Shown piece by piece: positions 12,052 to 42,791 of a stretch of DNA of 64,000 nucleotides. The stretch lies in the NCBI GenBank assembly GCA_027923505.1, contig BROI01000025.1, positions 1 through 64,000 on the forward strand, in the 5' to 3' direction. How positions within the stretch are numbered: position 1 is the stretch's first letter; every line of letters starts with the position of its first letter. This stretch comes from Mayamaea pseudoterrestris (lineage: Eukaryota). A program made the translations under genes and the position numbers. Under the pieces are notes generated by a model. It searched no databases and was not told the DNA's origin. It saw nothing but the letters and a program-made list of their open reading frames with translations.

Positions 12052-12743
12052 CTACCGTAAGCTTCGATCATATAGATTGCCGTTATCACCTTTATCGTCA
12101 TAGATTGGTACAACTCCATTCTCCACTAGTCGCATTAGCAACTGCGCTTTTGACCCTCCCACTGCCAGTTCGTTTCGCCTTGCGCGTTCCTTCAACTCAT
12201 CGAGCGTAAATCGCCCGAGAGCCCCATCGACAAAGAGTTTCTGACGCTTCCATTGCTCCAGTTCCTTCACTTGCTCCGACAGCTCCGATACGCGCCGCTT
12301 TAACACGACAATTTCTTGCTCACCGGTAATGACGGCGCGGGCCACCGCCTTGACCTTTGGCTGCGACACTTGCATGCCGCGCAGCGTGACGCGACCAATG
12401 AAACGCGCCAAGGCGCCGCCAAGATTGTCGTCCTGCTCGTCGAGCGGATCAATGTTGGCAATGTAACATACCATGAAAAATATAATGCCGGATATAATAA
12501 CGTTGTGATTGATGACTAGATACGATGCCGCGCCTGCGACACTGGCAGAAGCCAAGGCAATCTTCCACTGGGAGTTTGTCGAGGCTTGCTCTTTGACGCT
12601 GTCATTATCATTGAATGCGTTTCGTAAGCGATTGACATCGATTTGAGCCTGCGCAGATGCAATGACTTGTTTTTCCAAGGCAACCATGTCATCATTCTTG
12701 GACGCAGCTGACAATAGAGTCCGTGTATTATGGTTGTGACGAG
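12052..12743 (-). pseudogene. 3' part of a plastid-targeted membrane/SAP-domain gene interrupted by a Copia insertion
   Basis: Two hydrophobic segments, a coiled coil and SAP motif FTLDELKERARRNELAVGGSKAQLLMRL. Joins in frame to 17969-18073 once the element and one TSD copy are removed. Confidence 0.8.
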
Positions 12744-12954
12744 TGTTGGATCTAGAATATATCTTGCGCGCCCTTGAAGCGACACTAATGATTAAGCAGA
12801 ACAGAGTCAATAAAACCACTTTACTTATTTTCTCCAAGAAGTGATCGTCCTCGATCCACTCCTTCGGTTGCCGCTTACCGCGCTTACTTAAATGTGACCG
12901 TCTTCGTGACGTCACCGCTGCCGCTTCGGTTTGGGTTCTCATCCATGCTCAACA
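12744..12954 (-). repeat. 3' LTR, 211 bp
   Basis: TGTTG...CAACA ends; preceded on the minus strand by the short purine tract AAAGGAGTG. Confidence 0.95.
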
Positions 12955-15541
12955 CACTCCTTTGGGCCGAGTAGTACTTACTGCTCGAGGCCAGATTCAT
13001 AACCAGGTTGCGGAGCTTGCCAAACTGGGCTCCCTGCAATGGTTTCGTGAAGAAATCCGCGACCATGTCTCCGGTCGGACAATGCTCAATGTTGACTTCA
13101 CCAGCTGCCACGCGATCTTTCACAAAGAAGTACCGAACATTCATGTGTCGCGTGCGCTTTGTACTTGAGCTTCTGCCATTCTTTTCCAACAGCATTGAAC
13201 TCATATTGTCTTGATACAATTTCGTGTCTTTGACCCCGAAACCTTGCGCCTTCAGAAAATATCCTGTCCACAGCAACTGCGGTAGCACATCATGAACTCC
13301 CACAACTTCGCTCTCCGTCGAGCTTCTTGTTACCAACTTCTGTTTAGCCGACGTACTGTACACTGATCCTTGGCCAAGTGTCATTGTTCCACCAGTGTGA
13401 CCCTTCATGTCTGGGTGCACCGCGTACGACGCATCCACCCACCACTGGACTATCCCGGACTGGTCCGCCTTCAGCGTCAACACCATGTCCACGCTTCCGC
13501 GTAAATATTTAATCACTCTTGCAGCCTTCTTATAGTCGTCTTCGTCAGGCTGCTGCAGCCTCGTGCTCAAGAAAGAAATCGCTGTGCGAATATCCGGTCG
13601 CGCTCGCTGACTCAGATACAGACACTGCATCACAATCGTCACAAAAATCTGCTTCTTCGCTTCGCTCAACATGACAGGATTTTCCGATATCTGAAACAAG
13701 TGACTGGCTGCCGGAGTAGCTGCCGTTCCATCCATGTCGTCTGGCGCATGATGCAGGATGTTCTTCACATAGTCAACCATGTTGATTGCTACTTCTCCAG
13801 GCTTAGTATAGTCCAATACCATGCCGAGGTAGTCGTGCACTTTTCCGCGTGACTTATTCATTGGAGTCTCCTTGCCAAACTCCTCATCCATCTGCGCGAT
13901 GAACTCATCCACTACGCTCACGTCGACGTGCGAAATCTTCAAATCGTCCACGTGCCATCCCACGGTGATTTGCTTCCCATTGACAATCTTGTTGCACACA
14001 CACGGATCGTACGGGTTCTTCTCGAAGCCCCACTCAAGCAATTTTGCGGACAACTTCTCCCAGAATAGTCGCGCTGCTCGAAGCGTACCATAAAGCGCCA
14101 TGAGTAATTCAACATACATGACTTTCTCGCCATTCTCCATTGTGACGCAAGGCTCGTACATCTCGCGATCAATTTCCAACAGTAGCTCCACCATCTTCCC
14201 AGTGAAACGAACGTGCACCAACTCATCCATTTCCGCTTGCATGAAAGCACCCGGTACATCAACCACAGCAACCTCGCGCCCTTCCATAGCGTCAATGATA
14301 GCTGTCAGAAAGATGGCCTCTGTCGCTATCGTTGGAGATGCTGCGTCTTCCTTTGCAGTGTATGCTCGTTGCTTGCGTCCATCCGCGCATCCGCGTCCCT
14401 TCACAGTCCCGCATCTCTTGCGCTTGAGAAACATCAAATACGCCAGAGCGTCCTTGCGCTGCTGCGGAGTCAGAGTGCATTGGGGGACTGCCTTCATGAC
14501 GTGCCTGTCGTGTAGCTGCTGCATTTCCTTGCGCACTGCCTCCACTCCAGCATCGCCAAAAGCCTTTAAACCTTGTCGCATATTCATCTGTGCCGTGACG
14601 AGTGGCTCCGACACTTCCTCTGCAGCGTCGAGCGTGAACAAATGAGCGAACGAGCGAGGTTTGCGCGCACGCAGGCCATACCGACCAGTGCGTGGGCCAT
14701 AGCGCGCATCGAAATCCTCTTCGTCTGCAGCAGCTGGCACTCCTTCAATTTCGCCTTCATCGGGCACTCCTTCAATTTCGCCATCATCCACGGCTGGCGC
14801 GTCGTCAAGTTCGCCGTCAATGGCCTCACCATCCTCGTCGTTCGGCACTCCTTCGATTGCGCCGTCAGCACCATCGTCGTCGTCGTCGTCGTCATCGGTC
14901 GCATTCACTCCTTCGCTTCCGCCGGCAGAGTCGTCGTCACCGCGAGAAGCGTCGTCATCATAATCAGAGTCATCATCATCCTCGGCGTCATCTTCGTGCC
15001 ACATGACTGGCTCAGCAGCCTCCGCAACACGGTGGCGGTCCATGAACACGATGCCCGGATTGGCCTTCTGTTGACGAGCGAGACGATGCACGCGCTCAAT
15101 GACATCATCAGGCATGGGCAAAGGCGTAGCGTGCCCACGATTCAGAACTTTGCCCGAAGACAAACTGAGGAAATAAAACCCACCCTGCACATTACCAGTC
15201 GGGCGCAGAGCCAGCGCACCGATCGTGCGCGCCTGCATGTCATTGCTGTGCGACTCATGCGTTTGCACATACTGACCAAATTCATACTTGCAATGCCGAT
15301 TAAAGTCAACTGTCTGACCAGTCACAATAGTGCGTGGACTGAGATCCTTCGAAATGCCACGCTCGTTCGGAAACGCATTCAACCAAAACACGGCAGACTT
15401 CGTCATTTCGATAACCAAGCGTGCCGGCACGTGCTTAAATGGCAACGTGTTGTATGTCGCGCGCACCCGTTCTTTCACGACACGGATAAAACGTTCAATT
15501 TCGCCAACGTGTTCATCCTCAGATGTCGCATTGAGCGCCAC
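12884..15541 (-). CDS. Copia pol, second part (integrase C-half, RT, RNase H); stop codon lies inside the 3' LTR
   Basis: EHVGEIER (IN catalytic E), KGRGCADG, ALYG, WHVDD, SSTESE, RTRHMNVRYFFVKD, ADFFTKPLQG. Confidence 0.92.
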   Translation of the reverse strand: MALNATSEDEHVGEIERFIRVVKERVRATYNTLPFKHVPARLVIEMTKSAVFWLNAFPNERGISKDLSPRTIVTGQTVDFNRHCKYEFGQYVQTHESHSNDMQARTIGALALRPTGNVQGGFYFLSLSSGKVLNRGHATPLPMPDDVIERVHRLARQQKANPGIVFMDRHRVAEAAEPVMWHEDDAEDDDDSDYDDDASRGDDDSAGGSEGVNATDDDDDDDDGADGAIEGVPNDEDGEAIDGELDDAPAVDDGEIEGVPDEGEIEGVPAAADEEDFDARYGPRTGRYGLRARKPRSFAHLFTLDAAEEVSEPLVTAQMNMRQGLKAFGDAGVEAVRKEMQQLHDRHVMKAVPQCTLTPQQRKDALAYLMFLKRKRCGTVKGRGCADGRKQRAYTAKEDAASPTIATEAIFLTAIIDAMEGREVAVVDVPGAFMQAEMDELVHVRFTGKMVELLLEIDREMYEPCVTMENGEKVMYVELLMALYGTLRAARLFWEKLSAKLLEWGFEKNPYDPCVCNKIVNGKQITVGWHVDDLKISHVDVSVVDEFIAQMDEEFGKETPMNKSRGKVHDYLGMVLDYTKPGEVAINMVDYVKNILHHAPDDMDGTAATPAASHLFQISENPVMLSEAKKQIFVTIVMQCLYLSQRARPDIRTAISFLSTRLQQPDEDDYKKAARVIKYLRGSVDMVLTLKADQSGIVQWWVDASYAVHPDMKGHTGGTMTLGQGSVYSTSAKQKLVTRSSTESEVVGVHDVLPQLLWTGYFLKAQGFGVKDTKLYQDNMSSMLLEKNGRSSSTKRTRHMNVRYFFVKDRVAAGEVNIEHCPTGDMVADFFTKPLQGAQFGKLRNLVMNLASSSKYYSAQRSVLSMDENPNRSGSGDVTKTVTFK

Positions 15542-17730
15542 TCGAGATCAGCCAACGCGCCAAGCATTGGAGCGAACTCCCCATCCATCAGAGCCGCGAC
15601 GACACGGAACCCACCGCGTGCGTAAATCTTCAACACAGACTCGATTGCCTTCAACATAACCGGAAGCGTACGGTTTTGAATCACCTCAACCGTAGCAAAA
15701 CGAATGCTGCGGGAGAACGTCACCAACATAGGGACTTTGTTGATATACATGATGTCAGCACAAAGAGTAACGTCTCGATAGCGACTCATGATAGCCGGTG
15801 GAAGCTGCTCAACAATCGCAGGCTTCACCAGATGCGACGCGCGACGCGTCGTCTTTCCTTTTAACGAGCCAACATCTGGTCCAAAGATGTGCTCAGCAGC
15901 CAGGATGTCGGCCTTCGTCACAGGACAGTTCGGCAACTGATTGCTAGTAACGATGCGCAGGTAATCCTTGAGGCTTGGCCGTCCAATTTTGATTTGCAGT
16001 TCCCTAGCTCTAACAGCGCGTAAATAGTCATCATTGGTGTAGTTAGTACGGTTATCGTCTACCGTAGTCAACATCGCCACTCCATCCTTGACATCGCTGC
16101 GCTTGCCCTTCGAAAAGCTCTCGCAAACATACAGCCCAGAGTCAGTCTCGACAAACTCTCGCTGCTTACCATCCGGCTTCTCCACAACGAACATTGGACG
16201 ATCCACGCCGTGCATGAGATACTCCACGGTAAACTTCTTGCGGACTTGCGCCAAACTCAAAATGTTCGCCAGTCCCTGCGGATACCACCACACCGGACCA
16301 TAGCCCTCCAGGTCGCCCATCATGTTCGTCCTTACTGTACCAGCGTTGCACTTGATCACCATCCACGTTGGCACCGGGCGAATGTTCGTCAGCATCTTGG
16401 CGTTGCAGAACAGATCCACTGTCGACTGATTGTCCAAGAGCACAGCCTTCTTCGAGATGTTCACCTTCGGCGGCTGCGCGAACATGTATCCGACCTCATC
16501 GTCGTCATCGCTTTCTTCCTCGCTACCCAGCGTGAAGTGCTGCGCCCCACTAGCCTCTGCAGCCGGCGCACTCTCCGTAGACTCCGTTCTCGTAGGACAG
16601 TCTCGCTGCACATGACCAACCTGTTGACAGGTCCAGCATCTGGGAGGGTCACGCGCTGTACCAGTTGTGCATAACGCCACGCCCTCGTTCGTTGGCAACG
16701 TGGCTTCTCCATCCGCATGCTCACGACGCTGCATGATGTTGTATGCATCGTGGATCGTCAACGGGAAGTTGTCGTGCCCGTCGAGGTAGCAGTTGCGCAA
16801 GTGCTTGCAATACCCAGCGTATTCGCCCGTTGCGCCACGCACGAAAAGCATCGCAAGCTCGAGCTCTTCGGCGGCCTTGATATCCTCCTTGTTCGCCTTG
16901 TTACGATTGTCATCCTTGGCAATGTTCAACGCCACAATCTCGTTGTGCATCGTGACGCCAACCGCCTTCGCCACGTCTGCCAGCGTGACCATGCTTTCGT
17001 AATATTTCTGCAGGCTTTCGCGCGCTCCTTGAGTACGTCCGAACAACTCAGCTTGAATGTCCACGACTTGATCCACAAGTTTGCAGCGCCCTTCGTACGT
17101 ATGCGAGATCTCCTTGATAATCGCCAGCAACTTAATTCCGTCCGTGTCCTCCTCGGCGTCTCGGAACTTGGCGTGCGACTTGACACGATCCTTCATACGC
17201 TCCGTGCATTGTCCATGCAACACGGCGTAGAGACCAGCGAGGAAGTCGGAGTATACACGCACGCGCTCGACATGCTCTTTCTTGTCGGCCTTGTATTCCT
17301 CGAGCATTATGGACCAGTCCGAGTCCGTCGTGTCGGCATCCTTCGTTGGACGTGCAGGCTCGTCAGGAATCTCCAGTTCCACGTTGCGCATGCCCTTGAG
17401 CAGCTCCTTGGTATATTTCTTGTAGGAGCGCCCGACGAAAGTGATGATCTCGTTCGTCGTACGGATGAATCCATCGGGATCGCGCGAACCGTTATAGTCG
17501 TAGATGAATCCAGCGAGCGTCGGCTCGCTTCCTTGGAAATTTCCACTCGGCGCACGACTCGGTCCGTTGAGTCTGTTACCATTGCCTTGATTCCCGGAAC
17601 GATTCCCAGCACGATTCCCACGACGATAATGACGGTTGCGTCGGTTTCCTTCGCTTGCTGGCGGAGCGGGAGGTGCACCTCCACCGCTCGACGCCGCTCC
17701 TGTCGTCGGAGTATTGCTCGTCGAAGACAT
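15475..17730 (-). CDS. Copia gag-PR-integrase N-half; frameshifted into the second pol ORF at ~15543
   Basis: Zinc knuckle, protease LLDNQST, IN acidic residues in ADIMY and MDGEF. Confidence 0.9.
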   Translation of the reverse strand: MSSTSNTPTTGAASSGGGAPPAPPASEGNRRNRHYRRGNRAGNRSGNQGNGNRLNGPSRAPSGNFQGSEPTLAGFIYDYNGSRDPDGFIRTTNEIITFVGRSYKKYTKELLKGMRNVELEIPDEPARPTKDADTTDSDWSIMLEEYKADKKEHVERVRVYSDFLAGLYAVLHGQCTERMKDRVKSHAKFRDAEEDTDGIKLLAIIKEISHTYEGRCKLVDQVVDIQAELFGRTQGARESLQKYYESMVTLADVAKAVGVTMHNEIVALNIAKDDNRNKANKEDIKAAEELELAMLFVRGATGEYAGYCKHLRNCYLDGHDNFPLTIHDAYNIMQRREHADGEATLPTNEGVALCTTGTARDPPRCWTCQQVGHVQRDCPTRTESTESAPAAEASGAQHFTLGSEEESDDDDEVGYMFAQPPKVNISKKAVLLDNQSTVDLFCNAKMLTNIRPVPTWMVIKCNAGTVRTNMMGDLEGYGPVWWYPQGLANILSLAQVRKKFTVEYLMHGVDRPMFVVEKPDGKQREFVETDSGLYVCESFSKGKRSDVKDGVAMLTTVDDNRTNYTNDDYLRAVRARELQIKIGRPSLKDYLRIVTSNQLPNCPVTKADILAAEHIFGPDVGSLKGKTTRRASHLVKPAIVEQLPPAIMSRYRDVTLCADIMYINKVPMLVTFSRSIRFATVEVIQNRTLPVMLKAIESVLKIYARGGFRVVAALMDGEFAPMLGALADLEWRSMRHLRMNTLAKLNVLSVS

Positions 17731-17757
17731 GTCTTTTCACTCGCTTCTTGGAGAAAA

Positions 17758-17968
17758 TGTTGGATCTAGAATATATCTTGCGCGCCCTTGAAGCGACACT
17801 AATGATTAAGCAGAACAGAGTCAATAAAACCACTTTACTTATTTTCTCCAAGAAGTGATCGTCCTCGATCCACTCCTTCGGTTGCCGCTTACCGCGCTTA
17901 CTTAAATGTGACCGTCTTCGTGACGTCACCGCTGCCGCTTCGGTTTGGGTTCTCATCCATGCTCAACA
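17758..17968 (-). repeat. 5' LTR, 211 bp
   Basis: Identical to 12744-12954; contains the palindrome GTGACGTCAC (17920-17929). Confidence 0.95.
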
Positions 17969-18073
17969 ACGAGAAGGAAAGGTGCTGATGCGAGTCGGGA
18001 ACTGAAACGAGGCATAAGCTTTAAACGAATTTGATATTAAAGCAGTCAGGATACAGACATAATTTGATTTCAT
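17969..18073 (-). pseudogene. 5' part (35 codons; signal peptide plus start of transit peptide) of the interrupted SAP-domain gene
   Basis: Translates MKSNYVCILTALISNSFKAYASFQFPTRISTFPSR, with an ASAFAP-like cleavage region; now followed by TGT TGA from the LTR. Confidence 0.78.
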
Positions 18074-27596: not shown

Positions 27597-27925
27597 TGAC
27601 ACGATAATATCAGACGAACCTTTATTCCAGCGACTACAATGGACTAGGAGCGATCAACCTCTTCGTCCAGCGTAAAGCAAACAAACAAACTCAATTGCTA
27701 GAATAGTGCATGTTACTCGCTACTCTACTCGTGCGCTTCTTTCTCGTTCTCACTGGGTTCACGGTCGAGGTTCACGCCTCGATCGTCAGCGATTTCACTC
27801 ATGTATGTGAGGATTCGGTCACAAGTGTGACTCAACCCTGCACAGGATTAAATGCATACAAAACACAGGTAACTAACCGTCTTGTCATAAGACGCAGGTC
27901 AACTCAACTCAATAATATTGTGTCA
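27597..27925 (-). repeat. 3' LTR, 329 bp
   Basis: TGACAC...GTGTCA terminal inverted repeat; direct repeat of 33755-34083. Confidence 0.95.
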
Positions 27926-27936
27926 TCCCCCTTGAT

Positions 27937-29925
27937 CTAGGCTTGTGACAACGATCGGTTTGCCGTATCACCCTTCCAGAAAAGAATCGGAATGATCAGG
28001 GGTCGGAACGTGGCATGCGGCAAGAACTTGGTAAGAACGTCGGCGACGTTCTGCTTGCCGAAGATGTGCTCAAAGTACAGAACATTGCTTGCAATGGCCT
28101 CGCGAACTCGGTGGTAGGCGAGCGCATTGTGTCGCTTAGAAAGTGTGGAGTGCGGGATCGTTGACGACTTCTTGACACTTTCGTTGTCACCGAACATCCA
28201 GGCTGGTCCACTCAAAGGAACTCCCAACATGCGTAGGAGTGTCGAAATGATAATCTGTTCGTCGCGGTCTTGGCGACGACGAACCGGATCCGTACGTTGC
28301 AGTCTCGACAGTATTCTGACGCTTGCAGAACCATTCGACGGCGTCTGGTTCGGAAATGCAGGACTCCCATGCGGAACGCTCAGTAGTGTAATCATGGTAC
28401 AGGTTTGCGTCCATAAAGGTAGTTAGTTGCACAGGCTTGCCCTTCGGGATCGGCATGTTCCACGGAAGCTCTTCGCTTGAGTTGCCGTGAGACCGATTGC
28501 AACCAAACATCCAAACATGGTCTCGTAGTTCTTGAGCATGCGACCGACGTAGGTCTTCGCGCTCATGCAGAGAGTTCCATCGGGATCACGATAGAAGTCG
28601 GCTCCAAGGTGATACTTGATGTCGCCGACGCCCTTCAACTTGTACTTGTACTTGTTCTTGAGGAGGTCTGTGAAGGCTTGTGGATCTTTCATGGCCATAG
28701 CCAGATCGTCGACGAACACGCCGACGTACTCGTAGTGAGTGCCACAGTCTTTCATCCAGACGTCAGGGTCCGCGTAACTGGGGTAGAATCCAATGTCGCG
28801 GAGTGTGTCGGCAAAGTGCTCATGCCAACGCGCGCCAGAAGTGCGCAATCCGTAAAGTGCCTTGTAGATGACCAAGGTATGGCCTTCCAATGGTCCAAAC
28901 TCGGGACCGGCAACAATGTAGACCTTTTCCTTGGTCTTGGCCTCGAGGTAGGCGTTACCGACATCGGCAGCCCAAAACTTGAGGTCGTTCAGTTCAGCTA
29001 ACAGTGCTATGGTTCGAATGCTTCGCATAGATACAACGCCGGAGTAGGCGGAGTCCTTGGGCGGAGCGGTCAAATGTCCCCCGGCGACGAGTCGGGCCTT
29101 ACGTCGTAGGTCGTTCTTGCAGTCGAAAACAAGATGCGCGTTGATGCGCTTCCAGTCACTTTCCATGAAGGCACCGATGCCCTTGTCGATGAAAGTGTCG
29201 TACTCGTGTAGCTGCTCCATCTCAGTCTTGACGGCGTCAGCCCACAGGGTGTTTCCATTAGCAGCGTCGAGGCGGTTCGCTTCCTTCCAGGTATTAGGAA
29301 CTTGAACGCCAAACTTGAAACGCGCTTCTTGGACACGGTTCTTCTTTGCAGCCTTGCACATGCGGTTAAACATTTTAGTGCGTCCTGCCATGCGCTTCAA
29401 GCGCTTCCATCCATCCTTGTCCAGCATACCCTTGCGCTTGCCGTACTCGGCAACGGTCACAGGGTCGGACTTGATAATCAATGCGAGTGGCTCCCAGGTC
29501 TTCTCGCCATTTGCCCATTGGATGAGCAAGTTGTAGGATGAGCCGCGATACGTAGCGTCGGCTTGTGTCAGTGGACCTTCATGTCCGTCAATGAAATCAA
29601 ACTTGTAGTACTGGTCGTCGTTGTCATCGTCCCCCAGTCGTAAAGAATCTTGCCGCTCGCACAGGTCGGCTAGTTCGTTGTAGGTAATAAGCTCGTCGAC
29701 ATCGCCGTCGCCGAGACTCAATCGAAACTTGATAATCTTGTGGTTGGCTTCATCGCGATCGTTCAGTTGCTCGATAACCTTGTAACGTCGCGTGGAGCCG
29801 TCTTCCTCGTCAAGAAGGACAGTGCGTCCCATCAGTTCAGCCGGAGTAAAGGACGGCATGGGTCCGTCGGGATCCAAACCGGCTAACTCGGCAGCGCTTT
29901 CCAACGTGAATGCGTCTTCATCCAC
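27937..29925 (-). pseudogene. Copia pol 3' part: chromodomain-like segment, RT, frameshifted/deleted RNase H
   Basis: ORF 28423-29925 carries RT. RNase H pieces are spread over ORFs 28187-28510 (KRQNTVETATYGS) and 27937-28395 (FGDNESV, KRHNALAYHRVRE, ADVLTK). Confidence 0.88.
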
Positions 29926-29938
29926 GGCTCCCCCAGAA

Positions 29939-32900
29939 TCAGGCGCGGGGTCGGTGTAAGGTCGTGTTCAAACACCGACCGACTAGGTCATACTCATCGT
30001 CAAACTCGTCGACAGTTTCGACTTGAACTCGTTCACGCGCGGGGCGCGCGTCGAAGACAGGTTCCGCGAACAGTGGTCGTTCGGACTCGGGTTCAGGAGC
30101 GCTTTCAGCTTCAGCGCGTAGGTTACGCCCTTCGGAGAAGGGACGAACGTTGGATCGGACGACAACCATTCCAGTCCGATCGGATCGAACTTGGTACGTG
30201 AGGATGTCACCCTTGTTCTCTGCAATGCCGACCCAGCGTCCTGCTGCTTCCTTGGTGTGAGGAAATGTCGGCGGCTCGTCGGCTCCAGCTTCGTACAGGA
30301 CTCGTTCCCAGAACTTGAACTGCAGGAACGGCGAAATGTCGGGTACTCGGTTAAAGGCGGCTTCAGTAGGGGTCTTCCAGTTGAGGGACTCGGTCGCCAG
30401 ATTGTTGAATAAGGCGATTACGTACAGCGCGCATAGGAGCCAGGCTCCAGCCGGTGCGCCCGTACGGTTCATGATGTTCTGGACTGATGACTTGACTTCT
30501 TGGATGCGACGCTCGGCAGGGTTCTGGTTCTGGTATCCGGGCTCGCTCTGTTGGTCACGAATCGCGTAGAATCGCAACAAGGTTTCAACTTGTTTCCTGA
30601 GCTGCACTCGCGAGTTATCGCTAATGAGCAAGTCGGGAGCGCCAATGTCTCGAATGAAGTCTTCGAGCGCCATGGGCATGTCACTCTCGGTTCTCAGTGG
30701 GTATCCCCTCGTCAGCAGACTCTTCTTGCCGACGAACAGTTGCATCATCTTGCATCCGCCATGGCCGCGGATTCCGTCGTTAAAGGCGGCTTCCTTGGAA
30801 AACCAGGTATCTGTCGCCGTATCGTCATGGAAACGAACCACATTGGCGGCAGGGAATCGCGACTTAAAGTGTTGGCGAAATGGGGTGTGTGCCGATGCAC
30901 GGAAAAGCTGTGTCGTATTCTTAATGGTGCGCTTGACTCGTTCAAGTGGCGTGTAGCCAAGGTAGGGTCGAAGCGCTTGGTAGTCAGGTTCTTGTGGCAT
31001 TATGCGTTGTGCATTGGCTTGGCGCGTCGTATCAGCCTGATTGCGATCAACATACTGCACCACACGTTCCACTGAGTTCATGTTGTTCCTGTAGGTGGCG
31101 TCGCCGAAGTCATCCATGCGGGCGTCGACGAAACCGTGGTTTTCTTCCAATTCGTCGAAGCGATTAAACTCAAGTTCTTCTTCGTTCCATTCATTATCCA
31201 GCTCCGCCGGATCCCAAAGGGTGTCCGCAGAGAAAATGACCGTCGGATACATTTCCAACTCTGCGTCCGTCGGTGGACGCATATCCATACGAGGCAAGCC
31301 GTCACGGATCGCCAAGGGGATGGTCTTGCCACAACTGGTGACAATGGCTTGTGCTCCATTCTGGGAGCGAGCGACGTCGTCGATCAGATGGCCGAACGAA
31401 CGAAGCTGCGATGGAGCATGAATGGATTCAGCACCGTCGTGCAAAGCATACTGGTTGAACTGACCGATAATGGGTCCAGTCCGAGTCTCAATCAATGCGA
31501 CGCCAGTTCCGACTTGAAGGTCGCGAACCGTGTGGTCGCTCAAACCTGTCACGTTACACGTGTGGTTGGTAGTACTCAAGATTCTCATGTCGCTTCCAGC
31601 GAGTCCACCGTTCGCACCGCCGTCAATCAGCGATCCTTGGCGGGTCTCGTTGCTGCGAGCTCGATTCACAGTGTAGCGCACCGATACCATTGCGCGGTAC
31701 CGACGGCCGTCGCTTCCCATAAACTCTTGCTGGGTGTTATTCGCAGCTTGAGTGCGAGACGACGCGGCGTTCGCAAGGAAAGATCTAATCATGTCATCCG
31801 GTGCACCTTGAGTGGCTGTCGTCGGGGCGATCGAGACAGCGTCATTCTGATACAAGATTGTACCAGGCACCGAGGCAGCCGCTTGTGACTGCTGGTTATT
31901 CGCGCGGTTGCCATTGTTCGCGCGTCTTGTTGTGGCGGGTCTTGGGACGGCTTCGCGTCGAGCCATGAGCTGAGCGTATTCGTCCTCGTTAAGTCGGCCG
32001 AGTCGTTCGTACGACATGTACGACCAGGGGGCCTGCAACAACTGTTCAAAGTTCAGATAATCGCCAGGGAATCGTTCCCGATGCGCTTGCGTACCGGCTG
32101 CTGGTAGTGGCGCGGAAGAGCCTCGTCCTCCGGAACCGCGGCCCGATTGGGTGCCACGTCCACCGTCTCGTCCACCGCCGCGTCCGCCTTGGCCGCCGCG
32201 TCCTCCGCCACGGCCGGAACCGCGTCCATTACCACGTCCTTGCCCGGAAGTGTTCGCGTTGTTCGCTTGGCGGTCGGCGTTCTTCTTGCCCTTGTTCAAC
32301 TTGGCGTTCTTGTTGTCGACGCGCAGAGCCTGCTGCGACAACATGTCGAAAAGATAGTCATAATCTTCCGTTAAGACGGCATCTGGGTCACCGTTTGCGT
32401 TGATGATGCGTCGTCGTTCAAATGTCAAGTGCTGGTCGAATGTCGTGCACGTGGGACCGAATTCTTCGTCGCCCTCCACTGCAGCTCGGAGCCAGTAGTA
32501 CTTCTTCTTGTCATCCGTCACTCCAGGACGGAACTCTTCGAGATTCTTCATGAGCTGTTCGATGTAGTTTAGGAACTTGTAGTGTCCTTTCGTCCAGGTC
32601 GAATCTAGGCGAATCGTCGCAAGCTTGGCTTGCAGTTCGTTCGCTTGGATGGTAGCTAACTCGCCGGAACCAAACTTGGTCGCGAGTTCGCGATAGACGC
32701 TCTGAGCGTCAGACTTGTCACCGTACTTCATTAGGAGCGACTGGTGTCCAGGGACTTCGAGACAATTGCGAAACGCAGTGTACATGAAGATTTGCTGATT
32801 CTCGAACTCTTGCTTCTCTTCTTCCGTGACTGGTACGTACTTGCTGTCGAGCACGTTAGAACAGCCATGGAGCTTGGCGATTGCCTTGGTAGACGCGCTC

Positions 32901-33535
32901 CAACTCAACCACGCGTGGGGATGTTGGAACGTTTTGTAGTCCTTGTAGTCTCGCTTCGTCTTGAGGTTCGAGAAACGACCCTTGGCATCTTCTTCCTTTT
33001 CGGCCTTCTCAGCCTTGATATTCTCATTTTCGAGTTGCTTGGCAAGTAGCTCGGCTTGCTTCTTCTTGGACTCGAGCTCGTAGTATCCTTCTTCACGCTT
33101 CCGACCGATTTCTTGTTCGGCGAGTATCTCTTGGAATCGCTCGAGCTTGCCTAAGTCGAGCAACGCCCACTTCCTGGTGGTAGGGGGTCCGTCGTGCATG
33201 TTAAACCATTCGCATGCATCGAGGATAAGGTTCACGTAGACTGGTGCTAGTGTCGTTTCGTATCGTACTGGGGCGGCGGCTTCTTGTTCTTCGGCCGGTT
33301 CTTCGGCCGGCTCGTCGCCCGGCGGCGCATCGTCGGGTTGCGCGCCTTCAGGTTGTCCAACGCCAGCTTGAATGGCGGCTCTGTCGACCCAGTAGGGGGC
33401 TTCAAGTTGCTCCTTGGTCAATCTCAACATCTGGGTAGTGGTGGTTACATTCCAAAACAAGAACGCTTCTTGGATGTCTCGTCCGAAAACGTTCGTGCAG
33501 AGAAGCTGCAAAGCTTCCGCAGTAATCGAAACCAT
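29939..33535 (-). CDS. Copia gag-PR-integrase ORF
   Basis: Long ORF with an RGG-rich gag tail, protease DGGANGG and integrase D,D,E motifs. Confidence 0.88.
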   Translation of the reverse strand: MVSITAEALQLLCTNVFGRDIQEAFLFWNVTTTTQMLRLTKEQLEAPYWVDRAAIQAGVGQPEGAQPDDAPPGDEPAEEPAEEQEAAAPVRYETTLAPVYVNLILDACEWFNMHDGPPTTRKWALLDLGKLERFQEILAEQEIGRKREEGYYELESKKKQAELLAKQLENENIKAEKAEKEEDAKGRFSNLKTKRDYKDYKTFQHPHAWLSWSASTKAIAKLHGCSNVLDSKYVPVTEEEKQEFENQQIFMYTAFRNCLEVPGHQSLLMKYGDKSDAQSVYRELATKFGSGELATIQANELQAKLATIRLDSTWTKGHYKFLNYIEQLMKNLEEFRPGVTDDKKKYYWLRAAVEGDEEFGPTCTTFDQHLTFERRRIINANGDPDAVLTEDYDYLFDMLSQQALRVDNKNAKLNKGKKNADRQANNANTSGQGRGNGRGSGRGGGRGGQGGRGGGRDGGRGTQSGRGSGGRGSSAPLPAAGTQAHRERFPGDYLNFEQLLQAPWSYMSYERLGRLNEDEYAQLMARREAVPRPATTRRANNGNRANNQQSQAAASVPGTILYQNDAVSIAPTTATQGAPDDMIRSFLANAASSRTQAANNTQQEFMGSDGRRYRAMVSVRYTVNRARSNETRQGSLIDGGANGGLAGSDMRILSTTNHTCNVTGLSDHTVRDLQVGTGVALIETRTGPIIGQFNQYALHDGAESIHAPSQLRSFGHLIDDVARSQNGAQAIVTSCGKTIPLAIRDGLPRMDMRPPTDAELEMYPTVIFSADTLWDPAELDNEWNEEELEFNRFDELEENHGFVDARMDDFGDATYRNNMNSVERVVQYVDRNQADTTRQANAQRIMPQEPDYQALRPYLGYTPLERVKRTIKNTTQLFRASAHTPFRQHFKSRFPAANVVRFHDDTATDTWFSKEAAFNDGIRGHGGCKMMQLFVGKKSLLTRGYPLRTESDMPMALEDFIRDIGAPDLLISDNSRVQLRKQVETLLRFYAIRDQQSEPGYQNQNPAERRIQEVKSSVQNIMNRTGAPAGAWLLCALYVIALFNNLATESLNWKTPTEAAFNRVPDISPFLQFKFWERVLYEAGADEPPTFPHTKEAAGRWVGIAENKGDILTYQVRSDRTGMVVVRSNVRPFSEGRNLRAEAESAPEPESERPLFAEPVFDARPARERVQVETVDEFDDEYDLVGRCLNTTLHRPRA

Positions 33536-33754
33536 GATAATGAATACCTCGCTTTCCGCAAGTCCTTTCTCACACAACAACCGCTCTCAATGCGGTCGAG
33601 CCTTATACGATCCTGTTCTACGCGCTCGTGCCAAGTATTCGGATTGACGACGCCGCAAGGAATCTGCTCTTTCTCTCTCAATTTCTCGATTCTTTCACTC
33701 TCTCTCTTTCGCACAGCTCTCTCAGGTCAAGACAAGCTAGCAAGACTGTTAATC

Positions 33755-34083
33755 TGACACGATAATATCAGACGAACCTTTATTCCAGCGACTACAATGG
33801 ACTCGGAGCGATCAACCTCTTCGTCCAGCGTAAAGCAAACAAACAAACTCAATTGCTAGAATAGTGCATGTTACTCGCTACTCTACTCGTGCGCTTCTTT
33901 CTCGTTCTCACTGGGTTCACGGTCGAGGTTCACGCCTCGATCGTCAGCGATTTCACTCATGTATGTGAGGATTCGGTCACAAGTGTGACTCAACCCTGCA
34001 CAGGATTAAATGCATACAAAACACAGGTAGCTAACCGTCTTGTCATGAGACGCAGGTCAACTCAACTCAATAATATTGTGTCA
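33755..34083 (-). repeat. 5' LTR, 329 bp
   Basis: Direct repeat of 27597-27925. Confidence 0.95.
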
Positions 34084-37000
34084 AGCGGTAGCCATTCCAC
34101 AATGCTCCGTGTGGATTCGCAGATCCCCAGCAGGGACCCTAGCCCAGCACCAGGACAGCTCCTCGTGCTCCTTCCAATACTCGTCGTCGCTCCCTTCTCC
34201 TTCAGACCGACGATCCAAACGACTTAAAGCATCTGCAATGGGGTTATCTTCGCCCTTTAAGTAATAGAAAGAAGGCGTAAATTCCTCGATAAACAAACGC
34301 CAGCGCATCACTCGATTCGACGCGTGCTTTGTCGTTGGCTCCACATTGTTCTTGTGGTCCGTATAGATTCTAACCTCATGCCCCAAGAGAATGTTTTGAT
34401 ACTCTCTAAGGGTTTCAACAACAGATAGCAATTCCCTTTCGCCAGTCGTATAGCGCTGCTGGGCGCCCGACAGCTTGCGACTGTAGAACGCAATCGGCTT
34501 GCCCGCTTGACTGATAACGGCGCCAAGTTGATACTCGCTAGCATCTGTATGAACGTCAAAAGGCAAGCTGAAATCAGGGAATGAAAGCATAACATCTGCA
34601 GTGATTGCTTTCTTAGCTTTGTCGAAAGCCGCTTGCTCTGCTGGCCCCCATCGAAACTTGTCGCGGGGCTTCAATTTCGTCAAGGCAGTGAGTGGTGCTA
34701 GGATATGACTCCGTTTGCGCCACATATCTCGATAGTAGTTGATTAATCCAAGGAAAGAACGCAGTTGCTTCAAGTTCTTTGGTGGTTCAAGACGCTTAAT
34801 AGCTTCCACTTTCTTTGGTATAGGCTTGACACCTTGCGGCGTTAGCCAGTCACCGAGGTACTCGAGCTCCTTCACGCCAAAGGAACACTTCAGCAAGTTG
34901 ATCCGTAAACCCGCGTCACTTAGACGCTTTAACACTTGCTCAAGCTTGTCCAAATGGTTGGTAAAGTTGCCTTTAGTGATGATCAAAAGGTCGTCCAAAT
35001 ACGTACGAACGAACTCGAGTCCTTCCATCAAGATCCCCATCTTTTCTTGAAAGATATCTGGGCTGCCTTTTGCCCCCATCGGCAATCGCAAGTACTCATA
35101 TTTCATCCAAGGAAGGACAATGGTACAAAGCCAAGAGGCATTTGGAGTCAATTGGATGGTATAATAACCCATGTTTAAATCCAACGACGAGGCGAGCGTA
35201 AAGCCGCCGAGTTTGCGTAGCGTGTCCTGTATATTGGGTATCGGCCACGGCTTCCTTTTGAGCATGCTATTAAGCTTGCGGAAATCCGATATGAATCGAA
35301 CAGTACCGTTCTTCTTTGGTATAATGAACGTTGGCGATCCCCATTCACTCCCTTGACTGGGGCGCAAAACGCCGAGCTCAACGAGTCGATCGCATTCCTT
35401 TCGAAGCGTTTCCTCATAAACCTCAGGGATTGGATAAGCACGCGAATGAAACGGCTTTGCGTCTTCCTTGAGCTCAAAGTCAACTGGTTCCGTCTTCCAG
35501 GATCCAAGGGTGCCGTCAAAGAGGTGCTCGTATTTGAAAAGCAACGACTTGAGGCCCGACTTTTGCTCGGTCGACAGGTTTTCCATTTCAGAGACCACTT
35601 TATCAATATCAGCCTTCTTGTATTTAGCATCAAGGATCCTGGTTGCTCTATCGGTCGCTTCCAAGAGCGAGTCGCCCTCGCGAACGGTGTTGAATAGCTC
35701 TTCGGCAAATTCTGCCTGCGCCACGTCATGGATCATGGACTCGAAAACCTCGTCCATTGTACGTCCATTCATCGCGAGCATTGGCATGCTTGCGCCATCC
35801 CACACGAGTGTGCCAGTAGACCACTTGATATCTATTCCAAGTTGCTGCATTAGGTCCCGCCCGATGATCAAATCAAAACGACTTGCAACATCATCAGGAA
35901 GCTCATCCACGGCAAACCTCCAGGTTACCTCCTTAGTTGGGGATAGCTCGGGCATCGTGAAGGTTAACGTGACATCGTTCCGGGTTACGAAACTGCCTCC
36001 GTTTGTTTTCCATATTGTTTCCTTTGATGCCTTCGTTTTGCCTCCTTTAAAGAGCTCCTCCGGGATCACCTTACGGCGTACGAGTGAACGACTACAACCA
36101 GTATCTAGCAAGACCCTATTGCAATTAACAGGCTTGTCGCCATTGCTACTAACGTTCTTAATCAATACCCTCAGTTCTGTGACTAAATCAACAGGACAGG
36201 TACGATCCGTTAGCGTGGGTTTGCGTGACACCGTATGCTTCAACAGAGCGTATAGCTCCTCGTCAAAGGGCAAGTCACTCACCTTAGCCTCCTCCTCAAC
36301 CAACTGCTCAGGAATAGCAGCGACAGGAGGGACACGTGATTCGGAATCAGAGTCACAGACATCCATCGCGTTCAAGGTTTCGACGAAATTCGCTTCTTGA
36401 GCAGCGCCATTCGTCTTGCCACGCTTGATGTCCTTCTTCTTCTTAAAGCACTTGTCTTCAATGTGCCCAGGCTTCTTGCAGTACGTACACGTGGGCTTCG
36501 CCGCGGTACCTGCACCATTCGCCTTGTGAGGCGGCGTCTTCTTCAACTGATTCGATTTCCCAGAACCATTCGACTTGCCGCCGCCATTGCCATTGCTTCC
36601 GCCTCCACCGCTCTGGTTTCCCGAAGACGGCTGAGGATGCGGCTGCGTGGCATAGAACTGGTCGAGGTTCTTGATGTACTCAACAATTTCGTCGAAGTCC
36701 TGCTCCTCCCAGTCATACTGCGATGCCCCCATAATGCCCTGCACCGTGTCCGACATGCCATTGACGAGGATATCTTTCTTCTCATCCTCTTCAAAGTCGG
36801 TCTGCTTGCGTGTTCCATGCAAGTACATGATGAACGCAAACTGACGACGCAAACGGCTGACGTAAGTGGTAACAGACATGCTAGCAGGCTTGCGAGTGTG
36901 GCGCATGCAGCGCTTTTGATCACGGCGAGCGGACGATTTCATGACTCGTAAAGCGAACTCCTTGAGAGCGCTCTTGAATCCTTTCTCTGACTGCTCATGC

Positions 37001-37527
37001 TCCATTACAAGATCCTTCCAAGCATCAAGCGAAGGGCCGCAAAGAAGCTGCACGGCGCCTTGAAACTTTTCCTTCACCGAGACAAGGGGAGTGTTCTCAA
37101 TAACTTCATCAAGTTGACGACGCCATTCGCAGTACTGCTCGGCTGTCTCAATGTCAACTTCCCAGATCTCCTTCTCGTGCTTGGGATTGGTATGCTTGTG
37201 ATACGGAACGGTTGGATCGCGTAAGTACTGGAGCTTGATGTTGGCCGTCTTGGCTTTGTGCTTGTCAAGCGCCTCTGGCTCAAGAGGGATTGGAGCCATC
37301 TTGCGAACACGCCTAAAGGCTGCTCCAACATCAACCTCGCCATTGCGCAAATGCTTGCTAAAAACGGTCGGCATCTTTCTTGCTTGTCTAAGCTTAATTC
37401 ACCCTTCTTTGAGGAGTGCTAGCACTTTGACCTATTGTAGATGGGTAAACCATGCAATAGCAGATTAAGTATGCGTTACGCTATTGATTGATACCTTCAC
37501 TCGTAATCCTCAAAAGATCCATCTATA
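34084..37527 (-). mobile_element. 3'-truncated Ty3/Gypsy retrotransposon (gag-PR-RT-RNase H; integrase and 3' LTR missing); 5' boundary uncertain
   Basis: ORF from 37374: CTYCKKPGHIEDKC, LLDTGCS, ISDFRKLN, LDLNMGYY, RLPMG, YLDD, TDASEYQLG, ERELL, TDHKN, ADALSR; it then runs into the Copia LTR at 34083. Confidence 0.9.
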
Positions 37528-41000: not shown

Positions 41001-42791
41001 GGAAATTGGGACGGTGTCATGGCCGCAGCTACAAAAATTGACAACGACTTAACAGACGGAGATGGTTCAGAACCTAGCCGACCATCGCTACAAGAAAGCG
41101 AAGGTCTGAGTCACTCGGATGGCTCGGATAATTCGTCAACAGAGCCAAAACCTGTGCTGTACGACCCAGACCGGACACGAGATGACGACTCTGCTGGAGA
41201 CTCATTCGTCAGCTATTCGTCGGAAGAGTTACGAAGGCGGGCACAATATAGAGGACAGGTAGAAGCGCTTGTGAAAAAAGTAGTGCCAGATGAGGTGGAC
41301 AACATTGACGCAATGATGGACCAATTTTCTGGGCGAGAAGCGGAGTTGATTCACACACTACAAACAATGGAGGAACGTTCGGCGACGCAACGCGCTCGCA
41401 AGGCGGTACACAAGAGTAAAGCAATGCCTCAGCGCGAAAATATACCTTTCGGTCCAGGTGGTACTGAAGGATCCGCTGCCATTGCTGCAGCCAGTACAAT
41501 TGGCGTTCAAGTTGGTGCCTTTGATGACGGTGGTGGATTCGCAGCTGGAGGTAATAATTTCGGCTTTGGTGCCCAGAATGCCGGATTTGATAACGGTTAT
41601 GGTGATGGCGAAGGCAGCTACAGCAAGAGTGGGTCCTACTCGGACGATCAGAGTCGATCCGACAGCAGAAGCGGCTCATATTCTCGCAGTGAACGCAGCG
41701 GGTCTCGATCTTACTACAGTGACGAGCGATCAGGCACAGGATCGCAGTCGTATTACAGTAAGGAAGATGGCACTGCAGCAAGTGGAAGCGTTGTCAGTGG
41801 GTCGCAATACTCTGGCAGTCGGACCGGAAGCCATCAAACAGGCTCCATTCGCTCCGGAGACGATCAAAGATCGTACGTTAGCGGCGAAGGATCCAAATCT
41901 TACGTTAGTGGCGCCGATAGCCGGACTGGGTCTCACTACAGCGGAGATGATCAAGGTTCATTTGTTAGCGGCGATGGTACTCGTTCATACATAAGTGGCC
42001 AAGGGAGCCGAACTGGATCGTATCATAGTGGAGAAGCAAGTCGAACAGGCTCGTATCGAAGTGGAGACGGCAGCAGAACTGGATCCTATCGAAGCGGGGA
42101 AGGCAGTCAGTCATATCGATCAAGGGACGGAGGATCCTATGTCAGTGGAGAAGGGTCGCGCTCCTATAGATCCGGAGAGGATGAGGGATCTTACATTAGC
42201 GGTGAAGGCTCTCGTTCCCGTCGTTCAGGTGACGAAGGTTCCTACATCAGCGGTGACGGCTCTCGCTCCCGTCGTTCAGTTGATGAAGGTTCCTACATTA
42301 GTGGTGAAGGCTCTCGCTCTCGTCGATCAGGTGACGAAGGATCCTACATTAGCGGTGAAGGCTCTCGTTCTCGTCGATCAGGTGATGAAGGATCATATGT
42401 AAGTGGTGAAGGTTCTCGCTCCTACCGCTCAGGTGATGAAGGCTCCTATGTCAGTGGTGAAGGGTCACGGTCCTACCGCTCGGGCGAAGATGAAGGCTCC
42501 TACGTTACTGGAGACGGCTCGCGATCATACCGATCGGGAGAGGATGAAGGCTCCTACGTTAGTGGAGAAGGCTCGCGATCATACCGATCGGGAGAGGAAG
42601 AACGGTCATACGTTAGCGGAGAAGGCTCGCGGTCATATCGATCGGGAGAGGAAGAAGGTTCCTACGTGAGTGGAGACGAAGGATCGCAAAGCTACCGCTC
42701 CGGCGAGGAAGGAAGCTACCAGTCGGGCTCGTACGTGAGTGGCGATGGCAGCCGGTCTCGTACAACCTACTCGGGCGAGTATGATGACTAG
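38061..42791 (+). CDS. Type-I membrane protein A: 4 Cys-flanked EF-hand-like modules, RLL motif, TM, acidic cytosolic tail with Ser/Gly/Arg tandem repeats; start 38061 or 38085
   Basis: Signal LLLSLLFLLILQSTTISA; loops DADSDGSLDATEY, DADRDASLSQDYEY, DLTRNGVLESNEY, DLDRDDALSETEY; TM IAASIIVVLLLICFVGGGIFYA. Confidence 0.85.
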   Translation: MINGNTNDMQRQRQRQRRRRRESLQQRFITQQSALLLSLLFLLILQSTTISALPFDTCSNALQSADADSDGSLDATEYAQAVETLSNGAVTSVTSGSSLETTFDTYIDGIDLSSDSTATATACRSLYQALLQALNVSFTSQQCTVGLIVGDADRDASLSQDYEYVRFVNFLANGDLASVTDYGELAAPVQNVFVDFASSTTIDVTGSKPSETPTDEQELFLADLCDQAAVAIYTSAAKSGNATPAPASSPSAAAESPSLFASTNAPTAATTTTTSEASFTFTECTTSLAFSDLTRNGVLESNEYVRFLNRLTSNAYYAETYDTLPVVLQNSFETLSDVSAQGILIDGSAPGSTPTDEELAHLQEVCDATDVALQEAGGSGGGATTTSPAAAPTTDATAPTTATTSAPSAEASSTSIELEYTRCLQYLAVSDLDRDDALSETEYLRFLTYASARAISATDYSELDETLQGNFRDLAAGEDAIDITGSKPGDAPTTDQEEHLTDVCNATVAAVNESLNPTSDDQTVLPPPLDNAVNATIYNAWIVSDPNGAITAISLRTGQNRKALDEGYATFVNDQFRLFLQTTSESRLLQDAIDAAPALYLADGSIENYQLVDYAPCPPFANGTPTTGTCTKIFSSFNVSMSNVDNTKVIADQLMQQTMKNIPKDLQADILEAYQATALVVVNSNLPIQPPADPGVATDDDESESEESGEKSNTGAIAASIIVVLLLICFVGGGIFYARRNNMSCEDVMIWLPEIPCIFKRNRKDEDADKTADIEKAAYGDDDDDDYEFGTAPTPKEAADNDFKYGDDDDESNAFSVMDQDPSQSGHDDEDAVGGGKGNKFKFGLGKKKAAAGTFDGAIGELGVDAFNDTAANDFADYGFDDPVAGMGNTTDDIFGANGDNVFESAWGKRGDGSTTGDQYSKASRSRQSGDRSGSNSDSGSEDDESYDDGDDDVAFRKEPNFETAEIPDNMRHLDAMVDQGNWDGVMAAATKIDNDLTDGDGSEPSRPSLQESEGLSHSDGSDNSSTEPKPVLYDPDRTRDDDSAGDSFVSYSSEELRRRAQYRGQVEALVKKVVPDEVDNIDAMMDQFSGREAELIHTLQTMEERSATQRARKAVHKSKAMPQRENIPFGPGGTEGSAAIAAASTIGVQVGAFDDGGGFAAGGNNFGFGAQNAGFDNGYGDGEGSYSKSGSYSDDQSRSDSRSGSYSRSERSGSRSYYSDERSGTGSQSYYSKEDGTAASGSVVSGSQYSGSRTGSHQTGSIRSGDDQRSYVSGEGSKSYVSGADSRTGSHYSGDDQGSFVSGDGTRSYISGQGSRTGSYHSGEASRTGSYRSGDGSRTGSYRSGEGSQSYRSRDGGSYVSGEGSRSYRSGEDEGSYISGEGSRSRRSGDEGSYISGDGSRSRRSVDEGSYISGEGSRSRRSGDEGSYISGEGSRSRRSGDEGSYVSGEGSRSYRSGDEGSYVSGEGSRSYRSGEDEGSYVTGDGSRSYRSGEDEGSYVSGEGSRSYRSGEEERSYVSGEGSRSYRSGEEEGSYVSGDEGSQSYRSGEEGSYQSGSYVSGDGSRSRTTYSGEYDD
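41870..42770 (+). repeat. Coding minisatellite, 51-54 bp unit (GSY[VI]SG[ED]GSRS[YR]RSG[E]DE), about 10 well-conserved copies plus degenerate ones
   Basis: Visible in the translation and in the DNA, clearest at 42130-42720. Confidence 0.9.

Follow-up and report, generated by a model that had tools for sequence, protein, structure and literature searches.

A Young Copia Retrotransposon of a Pennate Diatom in a Large Diatom-Type Clade That Probably Primes Reverse Transcription with Its Own RNA

Introduction

LTR elements rely on a host RNA for only a few steps of their life cycle, among them the priming of reverse transcription, and lineages that escape this dependence bear on the evolution of retroelements. 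In Tf1 the priming is intramolecular, the cut being made by the RNase H of the element itself, and the duplex formed with the primer binding site (PBS) is 11 nt long. To our knowledge, what is known of self-priming from experiment rests on Tf1.

Self-priming has been demonstrated experimentally for the Tf1/sushi elements of the Gypsy superfamily, as cited in PMC6317226 and PMC5445492. Among Copia elements it has been predicted in silico for the plant TAR lineage, which includes Houba and Osr-1 (Neumann et al. 2019, PMC6317226; Capy 2005 as cited there), the criterion being complementarity to the LTR over at least 10 nt from a point 0 to 5 nt past the 5' LTR (PMC6317226). The fungal GalEa elements, also Copia, carry a "Conserved Hairpin Site" instead of a PBS; this is a local palindromic hairpin just after the LTR, for which the authors found no complement in the LTR (PMC5445492). 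The Copia elements of diatoms have been sorted by similarity of their reverse transcriptases (RT) into the groups CoDi1 to CoDi7 (PMC2806351).

Here we analyse a Copia element for which a preliminary description, made from the DNA letters, had proposed priming of the Tf1 kind, mentioning a similar proposal for a diatom CoDi element. That earlier proposal could not be traced: in the main text of Maumus et al. 2009 (PMC2806351), tRNA, priming and self do not occur and "PBS" denotes a buffer only. Nor did we find any account of self-priming or of PBS types in diatom retrotransposons in the main texts of the mostly open-access full-text literature searched. Novelty for Copia as a superfamily does not hold, as self-priming had already been predicted for the plant TAR lineage (PMC6317226).

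Anatomy of the Element

The window, by which we mean the whole stretch of 64,000 nt that was analysed, contains a Ty1/Copia LTR retrotransposon of 5,225 bp at positions 12744-17968 on the minus strand. Its LTRs (12744-12954 and 17758-17968) are a direct repeat of 211 nt each with 100% identity. Their ends have the form TG...CA (TGTTG...CAACA) and the element is flanked by a 5-bp target site duplication (TSD), CTCGT, both as in Ty1/Copia elements. The features are as follows, in the order of the sense strand.

17969..17973, minus strand: upstream copy of the TSD CTCGT, read from the sequence and fitting the empty-site contig of run X6
17758..17968, minus strand: 5' LTR, TGTTG...CAACA, 211 nt, 100% identical direct repeat
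17856..17968, minus strand: predicted U3, 113 nt, ending in the initiator-like TCA at 17858-17856, by which it is placed
17841..17855, minus strand: predicted transcript nucleotides 1-15 (start of R), putative self-primer segment CUUCUUGGAGAAAAU; perfect complement of the PBS, in a position kept in relatives; transcription start predicted
17838..17843, minus strand: AATAAG, possible poly(A) signal judged from the sequence, overlapping the 3' end of the primer segment
17744..17758, minus strand: PBS AUUUUCUCCAAGAAG, from the last base of the 5' LTR to 13 nt before the gag ATG, by complementarity and by the duplex in the predicted fold
15475..17730, minus strand: ORF1, gag followed by the putative protease and N-terminal integrase region, with a zinc knuckle at residues 364-379
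15542..15543: frame shift of the window copy, where all four runs compared have one extra C
12884..15541, minus strand: ORF2, the remaining pol, with Copia-type RT (RVT_2) at residues 376-599, extending 70 nt into the 3' LTR
12955..12963, minus strand: polypurine-like tract AAAGGAGTG immediately 5' of the 3' LTR, encoding with TGTTG the invariant RSVL
12744..12954, minus strand: 3' LTR, 211 nt, of the same repeat pair
12827..12841, minus strand: copy of the primer segment in the 3' LTR (the R copy, RNA 3' end), found as an occurrence of the 15-mer
12739..12743, minus strand: downstream copy of the TSD CTCGT, read from the sequence

The gag ATG lies at 17730, and the sense strand between the 5' LTR and this ATG reads TTTTCTCCAAGAAGCGAGTGAAAAGAC. 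Pfam matches were obtained for RVT_2 (E 9.9e-17) and, upstream of the RT, for zf-CCHC (E 1.5e-5). No match to the Pfam models of integrase, protease and RNase H was obtained, E values up to 5 included, and no solved structure in the PDB was matched by a profile built on the 33 relatives of alignment A1. The basis of the Copia assignment is therefore RVT_2 together with the zinc knuckle, the TSD and the layout. About 740 aa separate the zinc knuckle from the RT, and about 285 aa of pol lie beyond the RT domain, a spacing compatible with the order PR-IN-RT-RH. Membership in the Tf1/sushi group (Ty3/Gypsy chromoviruses) was considered and rejected, since the RT is of the RVT_2 type and no integrase follows it, pol terminating within the 3' LTR some 285 aa past the RT.

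The best database protein, with 99% identity, is annotated from the pennate diatom Mayamaea pseudoterrestris, which places the element in a diatom host as for the CoDi elements. Viral contigs scanned with protein P0002 gave no match. Two of the relatives of the diatom-type Copia pol, P0035 and P0106 (48-56% identical), are filed under the names of prokaryotic metagenome-assembled genomes (MAGs), a Nitrososphaerota archaeon and a Halothiobacillus sp.; most likely they are eukaryotic contigs binned into prokaryotic MAGs.

The Primer Binding Site of the Window Copy

The preliminary description held that the PBS lacks the usual TGG and is complementary to the LTR of the same element, and both points were confirmed. 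Directly after the 5' LTR the sense strand reads TTTTCTCCAAGAAGCGAG, without TGG, so that the 3' end of a tRNA cannot bind there. From the last base of the 5' LTR onwards, 15 nt (17758-17744) match the reverse complement of LTR-internal positions 17855-17841 without a mismatch (15/15). When extended, the arms 17741-17758 and 17841-17858 form an inverted repeat of 18 nt that is 94% complementary (17/18), with the arms 82 nt apart; the extension, which lies upstream of the predicted RNA start, is probably fortuitous. One small correction to the preliminary description concerns the boundary: the paired stretch includes the last LTR base, A17758.

The perfect 15-mer has three occurrences in the window, namely the PBS, the 5' LTR and the 3' LTR (12827-12841), and with one mismatch allowed a match was reached in none of 100 shuffles of the window. 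As a control, the 3' LTR of the same element together with its host flank was searched, and no inverted repeat of at least 9 nt was present. In the fold of the predicted RNA (17855-17738) the 15-bp duplex appears in both the minimum free energy and the centroid structure (z = -2.64). ARAGORN detected no tRNA gene within the window.

The Junction in Related Elements

With the alignment of 33 relatives (A1), 71 metagenome loci, 42-71% identical to ORF2, were retrieved. The end of pol, RSVL (R861, S862, V863, L864), is invariant in A1; it is encoded by the polypurine tract together with the start of the LTR (GGAGTG/TGTTG), and it marks the LTR start in every relative. A test defined beforehand took those loci whose contig, linear or circularised by terminal overlap, carries gag homology beyond the LTR start (n = 18). 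In all 18, the longest inverted repeat of the LTR-to-gag region had its downstream arm at the LTR end, in the form ...CAAC/A or ...AACA/, and its upstream arm inside the LTR. The repeat was perfect and 14-17 nt long in 17 of these loci and 10 nt long in L003.

Looser inclusion, which admitted regions after an LTR start without detected gag homology, regions upstream of gag, wrap-around contigs and a second element in L055, yielded 14 further positives. The preliminary description had named a loss of the complementarity in related copies as evidence against its reading. Among the 34 of 71 loci that could be assessed, the complement is perfect in 32 (12-17 nt) and imperfect in 2, with no clear negative and with sequences that always differ; 6 of the 32 (L014, L026, L043, L058, L063 and L067) were admitted through finding the repeat itself, which is selection by outcome, and several junctions were read on contigs circularised by terminal overlap, the arms of L056 coming from opposite ends of its contig. 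The perfect complements measure 17 nt in 2 loci, 16 nt in 10, 15 nt in 11, 14 nt in 6, 13 nt in 2 and 12 nt in 1. Decay is evident in both imperfect copies: L003 pairs over 10 bp and, past a 1-nt bulge, over 3 more, and L017, with LTRs that are 93% identical, has 15 bp including two G.U pairs. The other 37 loci were left out because the contig lacked the junction or the relevant part of the LTR. Counted as non-assessable were L020 and L068, which are cut within the LTR, and L053, which was dropped as a negative when it was found to consist of a 3' LTR followed by the truncated gag of another element.

Dinucleotide shuffling of 28 such regions (2800 shuffles) gave perfect inverted repeats of at most 13 nt, a length seen twice; 14 nt was never reached. 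The spacing of the arms varies from 27 to 205 nt across the junctions, and in 33 of 33 junctions one arm sits at the PBS position, at or directly after the LTR-terminal CA. Loci that bear the feature are found on all major branches of the RT tree (33 rows).

The arms have diverged widely, all 33 sequences being distinct, with 83% A+T and with TGG at the start of the PBS in none. A conserved host tRNA cannot be the primer for 33 distinct, A+T-rich PBS without TGG: tRNAs vary little and are rich in G+C, and one of them could not match 33 unrelated sequences, which implies that the primer must be encoded by the element. Compensatory changes between the PBS and the LTR arm, which had been suggested as a check, are present in two pairs of relatives: L004 differs from L003 by two double-sided substitutions, and L044 from L056 by one double-sided substitution and one double-sided 1-nt indel. 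In 9 of 19 regions, 1-34 nt separate the arm from the gag ATG (L033 has 1 nt, L004 5 nt and the window 13 nt), and the sequence in between is unconserved among the relatives; this short and unconserved stretch leaves no space for another primer site.

On the other side of the duplex, the LTR arm is followed by CTAG in 7 of 33 junctions, by CTGG in 4 and by CTAA in 2, often as CTAGTT (for example in L002, L004, L023, L030, L033, L038 and L050). The window copy differs here, with AAGTAA after the arm. This motif could indicate the cut site, the 3' boundary of R or a site of polyadenylation.

Predicted Start of the RNA

In 23 of 33 junctions a TCA borders the LTR arm on its 5' side, with its A at position -1 or 0, against a background of 2.1% per position. 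The junctions are distributed as follows.

TCA with A at -1: 17 of 33 junctions
TCA with A as the first paired base (0): 6 of 33 junctions
TCA with A at -2: 2 of 33 junctions
YYA at the arm edge: 7 of 33 junctions
No motif at the arm edge: 1 of 33 junctions

Phaeodactylum genes and diatom-virus promoters have led to the proposal of an initiator-like consensus for diatoms, TCAH+1W (PMC4686930), and the first two bases of the arm fit H+1 W in 17 of the 17 junctions with A at -1. The A that precedes the arm pairs in 7 of 33 junctions, about the rate expected by chance, and selection for pairing seems to stop where the RNA is predicted to begin. In the window the motif reads GATCA/CTTC, so that +1 is predicted at C17855, where the perfect complement begins. 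A start within TCACTT near 17856 had been proposed for this copy; it agrees with the conserved TCA (23/33) and with TCAH+1W, the predicted position of 17855 being one or two bases from 17856. The AT-rich element CATTTAAG that had been pointed out upstream of the start is indeed there in the window, but nothing like it stood out on reading the relatives. When their junctions were read by eye, no TATA-like box or poly(A) signal stood out, only the frequent CTAG/CTGG after the arm.

The element was found in nine public runs, all stored as contigs and none on record as RNA; the 11 runs surveyed included no RNA run that contains it. As contigs cannot show RNA ends, the predicted transcription start rests on the motif. 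The contigs of X5, a run of unknown kind, end at 17845 and 12816, and the DNA-like runs X3 and X4 span the whole LTR. If the X5 contigs derive from RNA, their ends are a weak hint: one lies 10 nt inside the predicted start, and the other 25 nt past the start of R in the 3' LTR, just beyond AATAAG. If they are RNA ends, R would be about 26 nt long and about 11 nt would be left for strand transfer after removal of the primer, which is short.

Age and Mobility of the Window Copy

Contigs of four public runs, which come from three studies and carry different coded organism labels, were compared with the locus, and the element is present in all four at 99% identity or more. A contig of run X6 joins 12738 to 17969, with 5 letters that fit both sides, and represents the empty target site; in the same run several different flanks adjoin the outer LTR edges, which are other insertion sites. 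The recent activity assumed in the preliminary description is supported by the identical LTRs, the TSD and this empty-site contig from another run. In another X6 contig, 33 other letters take the place of 12717-17978, and the sequence does not agree with the flank at 18017-18049; the contig may stem from a diverged allele of the target region or from a paralogue of it.

All four runs have one extra C behind 15542, exactly where the frame changes between ORF1 and ORF2, inside the presumed integrase region. A public protein of 1477 aa (P0003, 99% identical) is continuous across this point. The extra C in the runs and the uninterrupted protein indicate that the family encodes one gag-pol polyprotein. 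The C missing from the window copy, despite its identical LTRs, is either a very recent mutation or an assembly error, and a copy with this pol frame shift may depend on sister copies. The window copy also has four clustered differences (T>C, C>T, A>G and T>A) at 16666-16672 with respect to the contigs of all four runs.

Other Features of the Window

A second Copia element, of another lineage, lies at 27597-34084 on the minus strand, with RVT_2 in the ORF at 28423-29925. Its LTRs of about 330 nt (TGACAC...GTGTCA) are 99% identical over 300 aligned nt, and no matching target duplication was seen. At its LTR/PBS junction there is no inverted repeat of at least 9 nt, and the GATTAACAGTCTTGC that follows its 5' LTR has no complement in its own LTR. 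This GATTAACAGTCTTGC resembles the anticodon-loop type of PBS of the fungal FunCo1 (ATTAAGAGTCT, PMC5445492). The RT core of the second Copia gave no tblastn match to that of the putatively self-primed element at E 1e-5; it therefore belongs to another lineage and could not root the RT tree.

A Gypsy-type pol ORF (RVT_1, RT_RNaseH) at 34081-37374 on the minus strand directly adjoins the second Copia, and the region around the two looks like a nest of retrotransposons. Further on, at 42126-42704, there are two overlapping families of tandem repeats with periods of 51 and 54 nt.

A Model for Priming and Its Alternatives

The reading that we favor, and consider probable from the comparison of sequences, is self-priming of the Tf1 kind across the diatom Copia clade; the element of the window would then be a young Ty1/Copia element of a pennate diatom, M. 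pseudoterrestris or a near relative, within a large clade of the diatom type that probably primes minus-strand DNA synthesis with its own RNA. According to this model, transcription would start in the 5' LTR just after the conserved TCA, at the predicted C17855. The first 15 nt or so of the RNA would fold back over about 82 nt of R-U5 and pair with 17758-17744, and the RNase H of the element would cut the RNA at the end of the duplex, as in Tf1 of S. pombe. The freed 3'-OH would be extended by the RT through U5 and the rest of R, giving a strong-stop DNA that would transfer to the copy of R at the 3' end of the RNA. Integrase processing at the conserved CA would trim any tail derived from the primer. 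The 5' end of the RNA, the cleavage and its agent, and the R/U5 boundary are parts of the model that we infer.

Viewed alone, a single short inverted repeat could be a chance feature of one copy. This reading is refuted, as neither the 100 shuffles of the window nor the 2800 of related regions reached such a repeat and 32 of 34 assessable relatives share it. Priming by a host tRNA or a tRNA half, with an incidental match to the LTR, is very improbable in view of a self-complement far beyond chance in the shuffles and of 33 distinct PBS sequences, 83% A+T and none with TGG, set against tRNAs that are conserved and G+C-rich. What speaks for it is the habit of the superfamily, since most Copia lineages use the 3' end of tRNA-Met or tRNA halves (PMC6317226).

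Two further alternatives accept the pairing between PBS and LTR. The duplex may be a structural or regulatory stem of the 5' leader, acting in packaging, dimerisation or translation control, with something else as the primer. Retroviruses and Ty1 are known to form long-range 5' stems in the region of the PBS, and covariation proves pairing, not priming. Against such a stem stand an arm placed exactly at the PBS position in 33 of 33 junctions, an arm-to-gag gap that is unconserved and often very short, leaving no other primer site, and a pairing that ends at the predicted 5' end of the RNA, the preceding A pairing in 7 of 33 junctions, close to chance; we find this explanation improbable, somewhat less so than a tRNA. 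A little more weight, still well on the unlikely side, goes to a self-encoded primer that acts in trans, either a short 5'-terminal RNA fragment (from an abortive or degraded transcript, or an LTR-derived small RNA) or the 5' end of a second packaged RNA, with neither intramolecular fold-back nor a specific RNase H cut. The comparative evidence is indeed evidence of PBS-LTR pairing, not of intramolecularity or of an RNase H cut. Arms only 27-205 nt apart favor the fold-back, however, and in Tf1 it is the intramolecular route, with a cut by the RNase H of the element, that is followed.

Returning to self-priming of the Tf1 kind, a broader proposition may be put forward, on which we remain slightly short of evenly divided. 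Self-priming may be the universal and ancestral mode of this large diatom Copia clade, in families down to 42% pol identity, and may have arisen independently of Tf1/sushi and of plant TAR. The initiator TCA would set the 5' end of the RNA, and thereby the primer, so that promoter, primer and PBS would have to co-evolve. R may be very short, with the A+T-rich primer segment also serving as its poly(A) signal.

Dozens of covarying primer/PBS pairs in a second, unrelated superfamily would offer an independent system for the rules that govern the length of the duplex, the cut site and the length of R, the more so as one family or more has transposed very recently in a culturable diatom. Self-primed lineages would also evade host defences directed at tRNA-type primer sites, for example 3'-tRNA fragments (PMC7472051). 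Annotation is affected as well: pipelines that require a PBS complementary to a tRNA would discard the whole clade, and the Copia content of diatom genomes would be under-estimated. The LTRdigest filter used for Cyclotella cryptica is an example of keeping only candidates with such a PBS (PMC7466962).

Comparison with Known Systems

As in Tf1/sushi, the PBS of the diatom element adjoins the 5' LTR and can pair with what is here predicted to be the 5'-terminal part of the mRNA, with no complement to a tRNA; a fold-back over R-U5 of roughly 100 nt is implied, and the trait is common to the whole lineage. It differs from Tf1 in superfamily, having an RT of the Copia type (RVT_2), and in the duplex, which measures 12-17 nt in the diatom clade and usually includes the last LTR base, in place of 11 nt. 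Self-priming of Tf1 is shown by experiment, whereas the RNase H cut and the RNA start of the diatom element are predicted.

With plant TAR the diatom clade shares the Copia superfamily and a prediction by the same criterion of complementarity (PMC6317226), but the host is a diatom and not a land plant. The diatom clade goes beyond the TAR prediction in having a conserved initiator motif at the edge of the complement and covariation across families. As in the GalEa elements, we see a Copia without a tRNA-type PBS and with a conserved pairing element in its position; unlike in GalEa, the pairing partner lies inside the LTR, 27-205 nt upstream. The CoDi elements (Maumus et al. 2009, PMC2806351) resemble it in the diatom host, the Copia domain order, the short LTRs and a mostly single gag-pol ORF. 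Self-priming is known for Tf1/sushi and predicted in plant TAR, and what appears to be new here is its prediction, well supported by the comparison of relatives, for Copia elements of diatoms.
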